Source: Tubulanus polymorphus (taxonomy: Eukaryota > Animalia > Nemertea). From it: 64,000 bases of DNA. Shown here piece by piece: positions 4,309-33,711 of this stretch (the stretch's first letter is position 1; each line of letters opens with the position of its first letter). The notes below the pieces were generated by a model. That model did not search any database. It had not been told where the DNA came from and worked only from the letters and a program-made list of their open reading frames with translations. A program made the position numbers and the translations under genes. The stretch spans positions 16,871,653-16,935,652 of the forward strand of contig NC_134028.1 of assembly GCF_964204645.1 (NCBI RefSeq), given 5' to 3'.

Positions 4309-5136
4309 TACAAAGTAGCTGAAGTAATAAGAAGGGTTTGCGATAGATAGGCGCATGGGTATTATGAAAATGTGAGTCCCCAGTGACTGTCAACTGCATA
4401 GTGAAGCTGTGGTACAAAAGTCACCGAAGACCGTGTCCCACTTAATGAAAGGGATAATTTATCGTGAATAATCATTGATTAACTATTATGGCAGAAAATT
4501 AGCAGTGTGTGTGTGTGTTTTCTGTTGTAGAATTTGTTATAAACCAAAACATTGTTGATGAATATCTCTGGTAACCTGAAATACCAAATGCTAATTTTAT
4601 GCAAAGACCATAAATGTATATTTTTGGCCTATTTGACTACAAAATAATTCTTTCTGCAATAAACCCAGTTGCGTCGGTAGGCATTGCGTTGCTTGTCCAA
4701 ACTCGTTTGGTGAGTTCAGCTCGGCCAGGTCAATACTTTTTCAGTACTCACTTACTATCTTGAGTGATTGGTGATACATTTTGATTTTTTTTTTTTGAAA
4801 AAAAAACTTTCATATCGTGAAAAATATTTTAATATTGGAGAAAATAGTGTTTTCGAAAAAGAATTTTTTCCCTACCTACCTACCTACATGTTCCCTTCCT
4901 AATTCTTGGCAATACAATAAACAAATGTATATTTTTGGCCTATTCGACTACAAAATAATTCTTTGAAAATTCTTTGAAAAAGAAGATTTTGGCAAATGAG
5001 CTCCAGCCTTTCAAGGTGAACCACTTTGCCCATAAGGATTTATTTCTATATTTGTTGACCAGGGGAATTGATTTGCCAAGCATTCCACCAAATTAATGGT
5101 GTACCTAGTCCTTAGTTGTATAATCTTTATTTACAG

Positions 5137-15358: not shown

Positions 15359-15858
15359 AGTAATAGGGAATAAGTTGTTTCATACCAAAGGTCGAAGGGT
15401 CGAGCTCATGAAAAATAAAAAATAAATTCTCGCAAACTCTAATTTATTTTTTTTTTTTACTCACTCGCCCCTTCAACCTTTGATATGAAACAACTTATTC
15501 CCTATTACTCTTAAAATATTCATATATATGAATAAAATATAAATGAATAACTTCTAAAATCAATTTTAATAAAAAATTTAGTATTAAAATGGAAGCAAAT
15601 AAGTACTACTGTCCAACATGTAATATCAATATAGATAAATCCCAAAAAGCAAGACACAATAAAACTAAAACACATTTAGAGAATAAATTGAAATTAGAAT
15701 ATGAAGATGATATATTAGAAACTAAATTAGATGAATTAAAGAATGAAAAAGAAACATACAAATGTGATACATGTAATCAATCATTCAGTGATAAAAGATA
15801 TTATAATGAACATTTAAAATCTAAAAGTCATATTAGAAATATGAATAATGATATTTTA
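15359..15858 (+). repeat. Left terminal inverted repeat, beginning with a 151-nt fold-back (15359-15509)
   Basis: 15404-15858 is the near-perfect reverse complement of 33254-33711; AGTAATAGGGAATAAGTTGTTTCATA pairs with TATGAAACAACTTATTCCCTATTACT. Confidence 0.95.
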
Positions 15859-15876: not shown

Positions 15877-15943
15877 CGTTAGTCGAAGAAATGGAAGAGG
15901 ATTCTAAAATGTTAATCAATTTTAATAAAAATATATATTATAA

Positions 15944-16738
15944 ATGGAGGAACAATCACAAGCTATAAATATATAAACAATAATGGTGTAATAAATATAT
16001 GCTATAAGAAATGTAATAAGTGTGAATTGAATAAATCATTAACAACATAAAAGAACTAAAGATGGTAAAAGTTGTTATTGCAAAACTTGTAATAAACTAT
16101 ATAATAAACAATATCGAGCAAATAATCCAGAAAAATATAAAGAAAAAGATAAACAATGGAGAGAAAATAATCCAGAAAAGTGGAAAGTTTATAATAAACA
16201 ATGGAGAGAAAATCACCCAGAATATATGAGAGAATGGAGAGAGAATCACCCAGAATATATGAGAGAATGGAGGGAAAATAATAGAGAGAATATTAACAAT
16301 TATCAAAATGAAAAATATCAAACAGATCTAAATTTTAAAATGAAAAAATGTTTGATAAATAGATTAACACAATTATTCAGTAAAGACAGTCACTCATACA
16401 CACTATCTAATTTACTAGATTGTTCGGATGAATTCTTCAAATCATGGATAATATTTCAATTCGATGATAAAATGAATATAAATAATTATGGCAATTATTT
16501 TCATATTGATCATGTGTTGCCTATTTCTAAATTTGACATGAATGATGAATATGATAAAAAGTTAATTTGGAATTGGAAGAATTTTAGACCTTTAGAAAAG
16601 AAGGAAAATAAAATTAAATTTAATAAACTAGATTTACAGTTATATTTGGATCAATTAGATAAAGCAAAGAAATTCATTGAATTATGGAACAATGATCCAA
16701 ATAATGAACAATATGTTGAATCTTTATTGAGTGGTTGA
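15944..16738 (+). pseudogene. HNH-type endonuclease, copy 1 (frameshifted at its 5' end)
   Basis: HIDHVLPISKF...NWKNFRPLEKKENKIKFNK motif; N-terminal CNKC; EWRENHPEYMR-type repeats; paralog of 28917..29765. Confidence 0.75.
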
Positions 16739-16962: not shown

Positions 16963-17577
16963 ATGTCAAAGAAATCTAATAAGAATAGTATTGATATTGA
17001 AAAAACATTAGATGATTTGGGAATTAGTGATAATAAGGATATTCCGGCCAAAATTGAAAATAATATTCAAGTTAATTGTAATATAGATTATGAATACTAT
17101 TTATATTGTAAGCATCATCTAGAACTATTGATTGCCGGTGGAAAAACTAAGGAGTTTTTAAATAGAATCATTACTTTTCAAGAATTAGATGTTATGAAAC
17201 CAGATAAAGTAATAAAATATTTTAAGATTTTTGAAGAAGGAAGATTAGCTAGAATAAATGATTCTATTTCAGATGGCATTGTCAAATGTTATTCTAAGTT
17301 ATGTAACCAGTTAATACCAATTGATGATGAAAATAAATTATATAGTGATTTGAAAAATGACTACTTAGTTATGACTGAATTACAAAAATGGGTTGGTTAT
17401 GCTTCATTTCAATTAGGATCGGTTATGACATTAATTTCTACTGGTGTCATAACATTTTCGAACATCAAACCTATGGAATATAAATCAGGTAAGAACGAAA
17501 CAGATGACGCTGTACTACAACCAAACGTCGAAACAGAAAATGAATCAGAACAAAAATTAACTAAAATAAATGAGTGA
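16963..17577 (+). CDS. Maverick-associated hypothetical protein
   Basis: Intact 204-aa ORF with TAAATG start inside the viral gene block. Confidence 0.7.
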   Translation: MSKKSNKNSIDIEKTLDDLGISDNKDIPAKIENNIQVNCNIDYEYYLYCKHHLELLIAGGKTKEFLNRIITFQELDVMKPDKVIKYFKIFEEGRLARINDSISDGIVKCYSKLCNQLIPIDDENKLYSDLKNDYLVMTELQKWVGYASFQLGSVMTLISTGVITFSNIKPMEYKSGKNETDDAVLQPNVETENESEQKLTKINE

Positions 17578-17908
17578 TGGAGTTAAGAAAAAGCCTAGAT
17601 CTGAAAAACAAATTAAATGGGCAAGAGAATTAGGTAAAAGATCTTCAGAATTAAAAAAAGCTAAGAAAAAGAAATTAACTGATATAAATGAATCACCTGA
17701 TATTGATTCAAATAATAATCCATCTAATTCTTCTAATGCTGGAAGTAATTATAAATTATATATTACAATTGGATTAGTAACAGTTATTATATTGTCCGGT
17801 GTAATATATAAATCAAAATTCAAATCTGATGATAAAGATGATTCCAATGACAATAAACCTATCATACCAGAAAATAAGTCAAATCAAGTCATTGAAACTA
17901 AATCTTAA
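17570..17908 (+). CDS. Small basic protein with one predicted transmembrane helix
   Basis: Lys-rich N-terminus; hydrophobic LYITIGLVTVIILSGVIY; overlaps the upstream stop. Confidence 0.7.
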   Translation: MSDGVKKKPRSEKQIKWARELGKRSSELKKAKKKKLTDINESPDIDSNNNPSNSSNAGSNYKLYITIGLVTVIILSGVIYKSKFKSDDKDDSNDNKPIIPENKSNQVIETKS

Positions 17909-17933
17909 ATTATTATTAATGGATTAAAATAAG

Positions 17934-19024
17934 ATGAAAAAAGAACAATATTTAAGAGATTTATATTATAACCCAGAAAGTGAAGTATCATATTCTAACG
18001 TTTCAGAATTATGGGGTAAAATTAAATCTGATAAAGAAAATGGTAATATAAAATATAGTGAATTAAGATCATGGTTACAAAATCAACCAACATATCAAAT
18101 TCACAAGAAAATGGATAAAACTTATTTAACAAGAAAAGTTATGGTTTCATATATCGATCAACAATGGCAAGCAGATTTAATTGACATGAAGAACTTAGAA
18201 GAACACAACAAAGGATATTTCTGGATATTAAATGTTATAGACATATTCAGTAGATACGCATGGTCAATTCCAATCAAAAATAAAACTGGAATAGAAGTGA
18301 CAAATGCTTTTAAATCTATATTTAAAGAAGCTATTCCAGATAAGATACAATTTGATGAAGGTAAGGAATTCTATAACAAACATTTTTAAAAACTATTATC
18401 TGATAACGATGTAGAATATTTTTCAACACACTCAGATAAAAAAGCATCTATTATAGAAAGATTTAATAAAACATTGAAAACTAGAATGTGGAAATATTTT
18501 ACTGCTAATGAAATATATAAATATATCGATGAGTCTATAAATATATTAGATGATTTAGTGAAAGGTTATAATAATTCTAAACATAGTTCTATAAATATGA
18601 AACCAATACAAGCTAGAAAAGAAGATAATTCAGAAATAGTTTGGAATAATTTGTATGGTGTGTTTGTTACACATGATTTTGGAGAACCTAAATTTAAAAT
18701 TGCACATCTAAATATAGAAATACCTTTTATAAAGGTTATACCCCAAATTTTACTGAAGAAATATTTAAAATTAAAAAGATAATATTAACTAAACCATTTG
18801 TTTATAAATTAGAAGATCTAAAAGATGAAGAAATATTAGGTTATTTCTATGAACAAGAATTATCACTTGTACCAAATCCAGATGAAATAGAATACAAAAT
18901 AGAAAAAGTATTGAAAACAAAAACTCTAAAAGGAAAAAAGTATTCTTTAGTGAAATATAAAGGGTATGATGATAAATTTAATGAATGGATTTTATCTAGT
19001 AAAATTAAAAGAATAAATGAATAA
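17934..19024 (+). pseudogene. Retroviral-like (rve) integrase with C-terminal chromodomain
   Basis: WQADLIDM, VIDIFSRYAW, QFDEGKEF, IIERFNKTLKTRMW motifs; IEKVLK...LVKYKGYDDKFNEWI chromodomain; in-frame TAA at 18387-18389 and frameshift near 18700. Confidence 0.95.
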
Positions 19025-28533: not shown

Positions 28534-28887
28534 TTATTCGAAATCTATTTCATGGTGCCCCTTTTCATTCTTACCTTTGTATACGAAATAGAAATCTCCA
28601 GAACATAATTCTTCTAAATCTTCACTTGATAATCTATGAAATCTATCTGGTAAATATGTTCTGAATTTATGTGTATTTCCTTTTAATCCTTCATATTCTA
28701 AGTGTATAACTAATTTATCTCCATATTTGTTAGTAACTCTATCAATATTTGTAATTAGATATTTCTTATGGATTATTAATTCTTTTAACTTCTTAAATTT
28801 ATAATCTACTGATTTGACATTAGTAGTATCTTTTATTCTATCTAGAAATAATTTGTTGTTCTCACTGTGCGTTTGTTTACTCTCCAT
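28534..28887 (-). CDS. Polinton-associated small protein (possible OB-fold ssDNA-binding protein)
   Basis: FKKLKEL...TNKYGDKLVIHL...TYLPDRF...FVYKG pattern; sits downstream of polB; function is inference. Confidence 0.55.
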   Translation of the reverse strand: MESKQTHSENNKLFLDRIKDTTNVKSVDYKFKKLKELIIHKKYLITNIDRVTNKYGDKLVIHLEYEGLKGNTHKFRTYLPDRFHRLSSEDLEELCSGDFYFVYKGKNEKGHHEIDFE

Positions 28888-28916
28888 TTATAATACATAT
28901 TTTTATTAAAATTTGA

Positions 28917-29765
28917 TTAACGCGTTAGAATTCTTTTCCTTATCTCGTTCTCTTTTGTTTCTTCTCTTTTAAATTTTAAGTATTCATCTAAATTGCAACC
29001 ATAAGCAACTGTATGAATTCCATCATCTAAAATATATCTTTTATCATCAAATGGGTTTAGACTTATCTTTTCAATTTCTTCAACATATTGTTCATTATTT
29101 GGTTCATTGTTCCATAATTCAATGAATTTCGTTGCTTTATCTAATTGATCCAAATATAACTGAAAATCTAGTTTATTAGATTTGATTTGATTTTCTTTCT
29201 TTTCAAGAAGTCTTAGATTCTTCCAATTCCAAATTAATTTCTGATTGTGTTCATCATTCATGTTAAATTTAGATATCGGTAACACATGATCAATATGAAA
29301 GTATTCACCATAGTTTTTTTCATTCATTTTATCGTTGAATTGATATACAATCCACGATTTGAGAAATTCATCTGAACAACCCAATAAATTAGATAGTGTA
29401 ACTGAATGCGCTTCTTTACTGAATAATTGTGATAATCTATTACCTAGACATTGTTTCATTTTAAAATTAAAATCTGTTTGATATCTTTCTTTATGATATT
29501 TATTTTGATACGCTTTAACGCGTTCTGGATTATTTCCCTTCCATTGCTTAATTTTATCGTTGCGTGCTTCAATATTATCTCTATAATATTGTTGATTATT
29601 CTGATTATAACAGCTTTTACAATTATGGCGTAAACCATCTTTACCAATCTTACGTTTATAATAATCTGTAAATGGCTTACTTATTTTACATTTGCAACAT
29701 GTTTTATGATATATATTTATAACACTATTTGTAATATTGATAGTTTGTGATTGTTCCGGCTCCAT
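28917..29765 (-). CDS. HNH-type endonuclease, copy 2, fused in frame to a duplicate polB C-terminal tail
   Basis: CCKC...CKSC zinc motif; HIDHVLP...NLRLLEKKENQIKSNK; tail EEIEKISLNPFDDKRYILDDGIHTVAYG equals the polB end. Confidence 0.85.
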   Translation of the reverse strand: MEPEQSQTINITNSVINIYHKTCCKCKISKPFTDYYKRKIGKDGLRHNCKSCYNQNNQQYYRDNIEARNDKIKQWKGNNPERVKAYQNKYHKERYQTDFNFKMKQCLGNRLSQLFSKEAHSVTLSNLLGCSDEFLKSWIVYQFNDKMNEKNYGEYFHIDHVLPISKFNMNDEHNQKLIWNWKNLRLLEKKENQIKSNKLDFQLYLDQLDKATKFIELWNNEPNNEQYVEEIEKISLNPFDDKRYILDDGIHTVAYGCNLDEYLKFKREETKENEIRKRILTR

Positions 29766-29794
29766 TTATAATACATATTTTTATTAAAACTGAA

Positions 29795-32700
29795 TTAACA
29801 CGTTATAATCCTGTTCATTATTTCCTTTTCTTTCTCTTCTTCCCTTTTAAATTTTAAGTATTCATCTAAATTGCAACCATACGCGACTGTGTGTATACCA
29901 TCATCTAATATATATCGTTTATCATCAATGGATTCAAACTTGTCTTCTCTATTTCTTCAATAAACATTTCGTGGTACTCAGCTCTTAAACATCTCATCTT
30001 ATGTTTTCTAACTTCTTCATTGAATATACAATTGATGTAATCTTTGAAATGAATATTCTTTTCTACTACACTTTTGGTTATTCCTTTTAACTTTTTAGCT
30101 TCATGTTCTTTAGTTTTTTTATGAATACATTTTAGATCTAATACCGATGAATTCAATCATTTCTTCACCACCTTATCCATCTTTGAATTTACCGGGAACT
30201 TTTTTATTATCATTGCTAAACAATTCATGATCTTTAGGATAATTACTGAAATCAAAATGATGTCTTAATGTTTTTAAATCATCAGTTATGTTATCAGTTT
30301 TTATCTTTAATATGTAACTGTCGGTATCAAAATATAATATTTCTTTATGTTTTTCTCCAAAAAGTGGTTGTAATACATTATAATAGAATTCATACATTAG
30401 TAATTTTGATAATTCTAAAACTGAAGCGCCAACATAGATTGGTTTATTAAATTTCATTGATGTTCTTCTCATTTTAACTGCGGCTAAATTTTCATCAAAT
30501 ATTTTGTTACCTATAAATTTAGGATATGTTTGTAAATGTCTAATTCTTTTACCATTACTAACTAACTCAATATCATTTCTATTTCTAATATTTTCACAAG
30601 TCTTACCATAGAATGCATTATTCATTAACTTGAAGAAATCTTTCTCAAAATCAGTTTTAGTATCAGTTCTCTGTTTGGTGTTAAAATCTATATATTTTTC
30701 TAACCATTTAGATTGACTAAATGAAATATATCTATGTACTTTTTTTAGAACCATTCCTTGTTTTAGATAAAACTTTAACATTCTATAATGTACTACATAA
30801 TTATATTTATCTTCTTGAGTTACCATTAACTTTTCTGTATGAATATGATTTTCGGGTTTGATTCTTTTTTGGTAATTTGATAATTCTTCATGTGTCACAG
30901 TTTTATGTTCGGGACAGTAAGCTAGATTTCTAGATTTAAATTTTTTATCTTCAGGATATTCTAAATCTACAACAAAGAAGTAACCAGTATCTGAATCATC
31001 TGCAATATCTAGAATTCTTTTCTTCCAATCAAATTTATCTACATTTTCATGCGGTAAAACTTCACTTATTTCAAATACTCCATAAGGTTGTGGTTCCATC
31101 ATTGCCCAACCATACAAATTATTTGCATCTATATATAATAACTTATATCTAGGGTTATCATTTACATTGAAATATCTATCACCTAATACACCAGAAACTC
31201 CTCCTCTTATAGATTTTTCAAATAATAATAATTGATCTATATCTGTTAACAAATCCATTTTTATATCTGTAAATTTTAATCCACAATCCCATGTTAAACC
31301 TGGACTTGAATAACAATGACATGGATCAATATTAAAATATTTTAGGTTTACATCTCTAAACCTTTCAAATATATCGGTCAATAATAATACATCTGATTTT
31401 AAATATATATCTACTAATTGCCCATGATTTTCTACTTTGAAATGATTCCAAATATTCAATGTTCTATTATATACTTCATCTTTAACATATTCATTTTTTA
31501 ATTCATCATAAAATTGTTCTTTTGATAATTCAGTTATGTTAAAATCATTATGATTTTTATAGAAAGAATATGGAATTGCTCCTTTATATCTCATTAATTG
31601 GAAATCATCATTATTTGGGTAGTGTTGTTTTAATATTTTTAATTCATCATCAACTAATGATTTTGATAAGTTATCTAATGAACTATTTAAAAATCTATAT
31701 GAATCTATAAATCTTAAACACCCAAATTGGAATGATATATAATTCTCAGATGTTTTAGCTAACATTCTAAATTTATAAGTTGGTATTTTATCTTTTGATC
31801 TATTTGAATTTAATATTTCTATTTCATTATTAATTTCTTCTATTTTATGGCATAACTGTTTGATGAATAAATGTGCATCATATCCTGATAGATTATGAAA
31901 TATAACTGGTACAAAGTTAATTTTCTTAGCTTGTAAGTTACAATTCTCATGCGCTGCGCCTCTAAACTTTCCATTCAAATGATCATGGTCTCTTACTTTT
32001 TTATCTTTATAATTAAATATCATTTCACAATAATAATATTTATCTGCAAACTCAAATGCTTCTTTATCTTCTTCTGTCATTATAATTTCTATATTTGTAT
32101 TCAATAATTTACTAAATCTGATTTCATATTCAATTAATAAGTCACAAAAATGATTGATAACATTTTCATTTCTATAATGATAATATTCACTTTTAATTAG
32201 TTCTGGATAATCAGATTTTATATATAACCCGAAAGCAGCAGCTGATTGATGAATCTTTTTAATAGTATTTGTTTTTGGTGGTTCTTCAGAATAATCATTT
32301 TCAATAGAATTTAATTTCTTTCTCTTATAATATATTTCTTTTCTATCTTGATCAGTTAATTCTTTATTTAATGATTCAAAATCTCCATATATAACAAATG
32401 GAACTTTATTTTTGTAATCATATTTTTTGAATTCTAATATTTTATCCTTTTCATTTGGTAAAACTAATTTACAATAATCATGATTTTCACATAATTGTTT
32501 ATGATTTAATAATGCACTTTCAGTTCTGAATTTATGTAAACATTTTCTACATAGGTATATTTTATTATCAAAATCATTTTCTGATTTGAAAAATTAATCG
32601 ATTCTTTTAATCCACATATAATGATTCCCATAATATAGTATATCTATAACACCATTTGAATCATAATCTTTTGATGCTTCAATATCTGGTTCTTTATAAT

Positions 32701-33523
32701 ATGATACATTATTTTCATCAATTGGTTTTGATTTAGTTAACTTATTATATTTTGTGTTATAAACGTGTAAAGTCATAAATATTATTTCATCAAATATTAA
32801 ACCAGATCCTTCAAAATATTTATCTTCTATTTTAGTTTTTACTTCATTATAACATTTATCTAATTTATCATCTATATGTTGTTTAGATATAATATGTTGT
32901 GAATGAGAATTTATATTATATATTGGTTTATCTTCAGATTTTCTAAAGTTTACTTTAACTGATATACTAATTTTAGGATATTCAACATCAGTTATTTTTA
33001 TTATTTCTTTCATATTTTCTGAATGTTTTTTATTTTCTTCTAATGTTTTTCCTTTATGAAATTTAAACTCAATAGCTGCTGGACCAATATCACTTTTAAA
33101 TGCTTCGGTTATCTCTATATCTTTTTTATTATCTAATGAATTAATATAATTTCTTACATCTTCCATGTATGGTCTTTTATTGTTTAATTTATTTTTTATG
33201 CTTTTAATTGTCTTCTGTTTCGTATCGTTATCATTATCAAAATAATCCTCACCTAAAATATCATTATTCATATTTCTAATATGGCTTTTAGATTTTAAAT
33301 GTTCATTATAATATCTTTTATCACTGAATGATTGATTACATGTATCACATTTGTATGTTTCTTTTTCATTCTTTAATTCATCTAATTTAGTTTCTAATAT
33401 ATCATCTTCATATTCTAATTTCAATTTATTCTCTAAATGTGTTTTAGTTTTATTGTGTCTTGCTTTTTGGGATTTATCTATATTGATATTACATGTTGGA
33501 CAGTAGTACTTATTTGCTTCCAT
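29795..33523 (-). pseudogene. polB: Protein-primed family B DNA polymerase with N-terminal zinc fingers and an endonuclease VII-like insert
   Basis: YGDFES, HNLSGYDAH, YLKSDV exonuclease motifs; DANNLYG, KLMNNAFYGK, YFDTDS polymerase motifs; VRDHDHLNGKFRGAAHENCN; several frameshifts (~32595, ~32105, ~30175, ~29930). Confidence 0.95.
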
Positions 33524-33711
33524 TTTAATACTAAATTTTTTATTAAAATTGATTTTAGAAGTTATTCATTTATATTTTATTCATATATATATGAATATTT
33601 TAAGAGTAATAGGGAATAAGTTGTTTCATATCAAAGGTTGAAGTGGCGAGTGAGTAAAAAATAAAAAATAAATTCGAGTTTGCGAGAATTTATTTTTTAT
33701 TTTTTATGAGC
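33254..33711 (-). repeat. Right terminal inverted repeat, lacking the outermost ~45 bp
   Basis: Reverse complement of 15404-15858; similarity stops at ...ttttatgagc 33711. Confidence 0.92.

Follow-up and report, generated by a model that had tools for sequence, protein, structure and literature searches.

Why does the DNA polymerase gene (polB) of a virus-like transposon end twice, with a nuclease gene placed between the two ends? This question is raised by a locus in a 64,000-nt stretch of Tubulanus polymorphus DNA (contig NC_134028.1, hereafter the window). A first-pass annotation had interpreted the arrangement as the trace of a nuclease from outside, which invaded polB and repaired it with a tail of its own. 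Our analysis retained most of the observations behind this interpretation and altered the origin of the nuclease.

The locus is part of an AT-rich Polinton of about 18 kb, which is bounded by inverted repeats at 15404-15858 (left, plus strand) and 33254-33711 (right, minus strand). The left repeat includes a duplicate of ~90 codons from the start of polB. The element carries the gene set of a Polinton/Maverick, namely a protein-primed polB, an rve integrase, an A32-type ATPase and a capsid gene (Pfam DNA_pol_B_2, rve and Pox_A32; the capsid match is weak, Capsid_N E 0.0011), in addition to the terminal inverted repeats. The polB gene (29795-33523, minus strand; DNA_pol_B_2 E 6.6e-16) was traced with tblastn and blastn, using as reference the intact polB of a related Polinton, which is represented by the metagenome loci L001 and L002. 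The window copy of polB is broken: its frame is interrupted by stop codons near 32594 and 30173 and shifted near 30114-30124 and again near 29929, and ~300 nt are deleted near 32671. On the minus strand of the window, polB with its in-line end (tail A) and stop is followed by a 28-nt motif, the nuclease open reading frame HNH1 including the second polB end (tail B), a stop, the motif again and ORF117 (28534-28887, minus strand), whose L002 homolog (65% identity) is located upstream of polB. ORF117 is unbroken, as are ORF204 and ORF112, which together with the rve integrase occupy 16963-19024 on the plus strand in the order that follows the HNH gene in L001. The inner 337 nt of the inverted repeats differ at 1 site between the left and the right arm. 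Dating the element by these repeats was discarded as unsafe, with 1 difference in the inner 337 nt against 14 mismatches over 490 aligned nt.

The direct repeats of ~200 bp reported by the first-pass annotation are real. Tail A (29761-29964, minus strand) contains the in-line polB 3'-end, the stop at 29795-29797 and the 28-nt upstream motif, and tail B (28883-29087, minus strand) contains a second polB 3'-end, a stop and the upstream motif of ORF117. The two align with a score of 307, compared to a maximum of 76 in 200 shuffles, and are identical at 28 of 36 and 160 of 194 nt in two main ungapped blocks. Tail, stop and motif were correctly described for both copies, but tail A of the window copy does not encode a single-frame peptide owing to the frameshift near 29929. 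It had also been noted that many of the differences look synonymous, and the counts bear this out: the 40 conserved codons contain 13 silent changes and a single replacement, a split that departs from neutrality (binomial P 2e-9). The sole replacement, at 29942, is located at a position where 157 of 157 reads differ from the window copy. In the last 13 codons 4 silent and 7 replacement changes were counted, and 2 of these 7 replacements likewise fall on differences between reads and window, at 28922 (369 of 374 reads) and 28939 (383 of 385).

The silent divergence between tails A and B (12 of 39 codons) equals that of the polB body between the window and L002 (ratio 1.05), and the tails have therefore long been separated. 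Since they are diverged at silent sites and yet conserved in protein sequence, whereas a passenger tail would accumulate replacements fast, both tails probably functioned as polB ends, each in its own lineage, until recently. Tail A is likely the imported copy and tail B the displaced resident one. The rate of silent change in the tail region exceeds that of the polB body 1.4-1.7-fold when amino-acid type is allowed for (P 0.006-0.06 in four non-independent tests). Tails A and B have residues in common that are absent from L001. Polarising the tails with L001/L002 was given up, as the L001 outgroup matches A at 9, B at 11 and neither at 5 of the 25 A/B differences. Base composition was also rejected as proof of a foreign tail A (G+C at third positions 9 of 40 versus 4 of 40, P 0.22), and in L002 the value is raised in this region too.

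The HNH1 open reading frame (28917-29765, minus strand) encodes 282 amino acids and, as the first-pass annotation stated, lies between the repeats and reads in frame into the downstream tail. Residues 1-229 comprise a zinc finger and an HNH nuclease, and the last 53 codons are tail B. Profile searches matched PHROG 1035 endonuclease VII (E 6.7e-14) and PHROG 2255 HNH (E 6.7e-07), and no match to Pfam and no solved structure related by sequence were found. The protein possesses the DH...N...N core of beta-beta-alpha-metal nucleases with CxxC zinc pairs, and in an alignment of 67 sequences, 66 of them homologs, it retains 12 of 13 family-conserved positions and differs at position 186. Its structural model (pLDDT 84.7) is confident over the nuclease part and drops below 50 at tail residues 238-257. 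Fold comparisons were weak: the best Foldseek matches were HNH domains of Cas9 (E 0.014-0.04), and in VIA Hpy99I (Z 4.8, rmsd 3.2, 45 aligned residues) and PacI (Z 4.3, rmsd 3.5, 86 aligned residues) ranked behind an unrelated structure with Z 6.2; absence of a structure from these lists carries no weight. With an open reading frame and an upstream signal of its own, next to a conserved gene and outside introns, HNH1 has the layout of a free-standing homing endonuclease. At the HNH1 site neither an intron nor another structured RNA was detected apart from weak miRNA matches on the terminal hairpin, and no group I intron matched within the element. That HNH1 is intact amid broken core genes had been considered noteworthy. 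At ~1 lesion per kb, however, a lesion-free stretch of 849 nt is expected with P 0.43-0.44, and intactness was dropped as a sign of selection, with ORF117, ORF204 and ORF112 being unbroken as well.

A second HNH copy, overlooked in the first-pass annotation, is located in the left arm. This paralog, HNH2 (15944-16738, plus strand), is broken near its 5'-end, lacks the polB tail and has a native C-terminus; its core is identical to HNH1 at 360 of 423 nt (dN 0.10, dS 0.56 between the two genes). It is preceded by the shared upstream motif and a remnant of the polB tail end (15885-15946, plus strand), recognized as a local match in 5000 shuffles (P 0.0004 versus tail B, P 0.0058 versus tail A). 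The left arm hence has the ancestral order polB-HNH with an internally deleted polB, of which the first 90 codons and the tail-end remnant are left ahead of HNH2. Comparison of the three sequences HNH2, HNH1/tail B and polB/tail A locates the junction between HNH1 and tail B at 29079-29087 (minus strand). HNH1 follows the HNH2 sequence to 29079 and then continues as tail B, and here the polB tail and the native end of HNH have 5 identical nt (7 of 9) in common. Because HNH2 and P0001, the HNH protein of L001, both end in a short native C-terminus, HNH1 must have lost ~4 codons and joined tail B at this 5-nt microhomology.

A metagenome scan for relatives of the HNH gene yielded at least 8 loci. 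L001 and L002 represent one related Polinton, which is ~77% identical to the window over polB and HNH. The order is ORF117 homolog, intact polB and HNH in L002, and polB, HNH, ORF204, ORF112 and integrase in L001; a second polB tail is absent from both, and the HNH gene directly follows the intact polB. Relatives carrying the nuclease at this position without a duplicated tail had been named in advance as speaking against the invasion of polB, and this is in part what L001 and L002 display. Together with the left arm, they contradict the arrival of a nuclease from outside. Gene order identifies the HNH gene as a resident of the Polinton family, not an outside invader, and suggests that it moved together with its native neighbour. 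In a tree of 27 rows, 20 of them the top homologs, HNH1 and HNH2 are sisters relative to L001 (support 99/94), which places the probable donor in a sister lineage inside the Polinton family and not in the L001 lineage. The relatives also provided hints to exchange of short segments. L001 and L002 differ from each other at 22 positions, of which 15 are concentrated in 52 nt of polB, this patch being about equally far from the window as the two are from each other, and in L001 ~45 nt are common to a polB loop and the HNH end. More distant relatives with ~32% identity to HNH1 (L003-L005) are located within capsid genes of giant viruses, in group I introns, where the Rfam model Intron_gpI overlaps the end of the HNH open reading frame. 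None of 125 HNH homologs carries the tail, nor do the 3 proteins returned by a search for longer ones, and among 27 polB loci for which the downstream sequence extends over 1.1 kb or more, none has a second tail (L009 and L012 being one place). The viral_contigs contained neither an HNH relative nor a match to a degenerate tail pattern.

Sequencing reads of the same species provided information on the frequency of the arrangement. Run X5 derives from another sample and study than runs X1-X4; ~12% of it was read, and reads below 85% likeness were uncounted. Depth was 477-783 over polB, ~520 over the HNH core common to HNH1 and HNH2 and 440 over tail B, but only 32 over the 5'-part of HNH1 (29510-29710), with similarly low values in X1-X3. 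Furthermore, 67 reads with 35 different start places join 29073 to 29951 and thus lead from polB straight into a B-like tail; at 150 nt in length they do not reach the sequence beyond it. At the right-arm site, the cassette of tail A and HNH1 thus occurs in some alleles and is missing from cognate ones, whose tail may resemble the displaced tail B, with L001 divided between the two tails. The cassette looks like a rare allele. With the caveat that depth does not equal copy number, the values are most simply explained if each element has about one HNH gene, located in the left arm, and a few percent of the copies carry the right-arm cassette. That an intron-free nuclease lies between a replacement and a displaced polB tail, as had been proposed, is thus supported by the truncated HNH1, its fusion at a microhomology and the reads connecting polB to a B-like tail.

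The explanation that we favor, at close to an even chance, is that tail A, the promoter-like motif and HNH1 are a patch acquired from a sister lineage by one-sided break repair, which was likely started by the nuclease. The donor would have been a sister Polinton lineage with HNH directly after polB, and the recipient an element in which polB was followed by ORF117. A break near the 3'-end of the recipient polB, likely made by the HNH protein as the putative cutter, would have allowed the upstream break end to pair with the homologous polB of the donor and to copy through tail A and HNH. As donor and recipient presumably shared homology only upstream and none past HNH, the end would have rejoined the recipient tail by microhomology beyond HNH. 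This would have resulted in a polB with a foreign tail, the old tail becoming a passenger on HNH, probably in a single and recent event without a sweep through the family. In favor of a nuclease trigger, the whole nuclease moved and nothing beyond it, the family includes the intron-borne relatives L003-L005, nearly all conserved positions are kept and the tail region displays the silent excess. Several observations speak against this explanation: the cassette is rare and without a second case among the homologs and polB loci searched, the outgroup leaves A and B unpolarised, recipients seem to carry an HNH already to judge from the depth of the HNH core, and the family swaps short patches anyway.

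A close rival, which we consider quite plausible though short of an even chance, explains the patch without action of the nuclease. During replication, a template switch or an illegitimate recombination event would have transferred it either from a sister lineage or from a left arm that was complete at the time, with HNH as a passenger and no homing. A rare allele known from a single case fits such an accident, as do the short foreign patches in the polB of L001/L002, the piece shared by polB and HNH in L001, the origin of the left arm itself by rearrangement of polB, and the chance-level intactness of HNH1. It accounts less readily for a downstream junction within five codons of the HNH end, by which the whole nuclease was kept, for the silent change in the tail region, which is raised if only modestly, and for the intron-borne relatives of the HNH family.

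Two further explanations were considered. An old local duplication in one element, with tail B conserved as a functional C-terminus of HNH and the HNH-free copies arising as pop-outs between the repeats, would explain the in-frame fusion of HNH1 to tail B, the residues common to A and B but absent from L001, and, via pop-out, the reads that skip HNH. We regard it as improbable: the tail-less HNH2 and P0001 show that the tail is dispensable, the model is of low confidence at residues 238-257, and the lack of amino-acid drift at a silent divergence near 0.8 fits a working polB end and not a repurposed one. Still less probable is a misassembly in which two divergent copies of the multi-copy element were joined. 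The many and diverse copies of the family would favor such an error, as would the lack of a piece bridging both junctions among the 24 listed (10,442 more exist). Against it, HNH1 joins tail B in frame and at a microhomology. In addition, contigs matching the 5'-part of HNH1 were obtained from X1 (231 nt, 2 differences) and X3 (254 nt, 4 differences), and of 28,387 reads from a different sample and study, 682 match the stretch at 99% or more.

Duplicated gene ends flanking an endonuclease are known from fungal mitochondria, where gene hybrids with mobile open reading frames (mORFs) have been described for atp6 of Allomyces macrogynus and for atp6, atp9, cox2 and nad3 of Glomus sp. (PMC3630166). 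In these hybrids, the inserted C-terminus continues the gene and is followed by the endonuclease gene and then by the displaced native C-terminus; according to the same source, cleavage-driven mobility was shown (PMC3630166). C-terminal duplications were also reported for cob and atp6 (PMC6279837). The window locus resembles such hybrids in that a C-terminal duplication flanks an endonuclease gene without intron or intein (PMC3630166, PMC6279837, PMC7487136) and in that the tail copies have diverged in DNA but hardly in protein (PMC3630166). In contrast to the fungal cases as described in these sources, it is located in a Polinton and not in a mitochondrion, and its nuclease is an HNH protein, a resident gene of the family, which is fused to the displaced tail. 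The cassette may thus work like a fungal mORF hybrid without being a member of this group. A second parallel is found in phage T4, where homing involves one-sided illegitimate double-strand-break repair with microhomology junctions (PMC2988022). As with the intronless homing of the T4 Seg and Mob endonucleases, a free-standing nuclease lies beside a conserved replication gene, and a microhomology junction is found where only one flank is homologous (PMC2988022). The polB-HNH order of L001/L002 also fits the phage pattern of free-standing homing (PMC2988022). The duplicated gene end of the window, in contrast, has no counterpart described for T4 in the available text of PMC2988022. Homing endonucleases are expected to be over-inherited and to protect themselves through changes at their target; at the window locus the allele is rare, and silent change in its tail region exceeds the body rate.

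In Polinton-like viruses and virophages, HNH and GIY-YIG endonucleases have been reported, some of them putative homing endonucleases that lie close to replication genes or are fused to them, and homing was proposed to drive replicase turnover (PMC12220804, PMC11296320, bioRxiv 10.64898/2026.10.13.758929). In contrast to the window, none of these endonucleases is described as flanked by two polB 3'-ends in the available portions of these sources. An HNH domain inside pPolB2 (bioRxiv 10.1101/2023.08.22.554363) is a separate feature from the free-standing HNH gene of the window. The intron-borne HNH genes of giant viruses (L003-L005) belong to the same protein family as HNH1, whereas the window lacks a group I intron. 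The literature on endonucleases, recombination and gene conversion in Polintons/Mavericks, as far as available, mentions no duplicated polB end. The duplicated-tail layout is known from fungal mitochondria but seems to be rare here.

What the locus represents is a rare recombinant allele, from which a region of ~160 nt emerges as a candidate nuclease target; it is not a demonstrated homing element. It is unlikely, in our estimation, that Polintons possess true homing cassettes, in which the HNH protein cuts the polB 3'-ends of rivals, rebuilds them with a silently recoded, cut-resistant tail and spreads between lineages within one host genome. If they did, a trick of fungal mitochondria would operate in a nuclear virus-like element and would have been caught here as a young allele, and homing would drive the patchy exchange of polB ends observed in relatives. 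If the nuclease did not cut at the candidate target, the locus would still clearly document that Polinton lineages recombine, and would be of modest interest. No locus preserving both alleles was found in the available literature on homing-driven replicase swapping. The Polinton family studied here offers the donor-type order polB-HNH, the HNH-free order polB-ORF117, and a recombinant with a junction defined at the base level.

The two metagenome loci that represent one related Polinton, L001 and L002, both carrying the HNH nuclease gene directly behind an intact polB and without a duplicated tail, are near-identical, with only 22 differences over 5 kb. Of these, 15 are packed into a 52-nt stretch that surrounds the DTD motif of polB (L001:3489-3540). 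This stretch is interpreted as a foreign conversion patch, and it is an alternative candidate target for HNH. The polB tail contains 3 further differences between the loci. Within L001, about 45 nt are common to a variable loop of polB (1490-1545) and the 3'-end of HNH (4760-4816), in frame in both. This piece is absent from the genes of the window.

In 168 reads of X5, a run from the same species as the window, the 5' region of polB (33410) is joined directly to the 3'-end of HNH (29130-29138; both in window coordinates). These reads likely derive either from left arms lacking most of HNH or from right arms with an internal deletion. The left end of the element forms an imperfect terminal hairpin (15359-15509); the right end reaches only to about 33711 and lacks the corresponding outer portion. 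A 28-nt motif immediately 5' of four start codons in the element (15944, 20888, 28887, and 29765) is likely a promoter common to these four genes.

The polB of the window contains an internal endonuclease VII-like motif (31931-32041, residues 185-221 of ORF 30176-32593; Pfam E 0.02), which resembles the HNH domain described inside pPolB2 (bioRxiv 10.1101/2023.08.22.554363). In a further locus (L017:722-6283, viral_contigs), polB is fused to a primase-associated domain: the protein continues for about 490 residues, reaching a region that matches PriCT_2 (E 0.00016). Polinton-type polB was also encoded at 30 loci in bacterial MAG records (L018-L047), which are likely host or viral DNA misbinned into these MAGs. 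Elsewhere in the window, a 51-bp satellite array of more than 100 copies with raised G+C extends from 53790 to about 60000.
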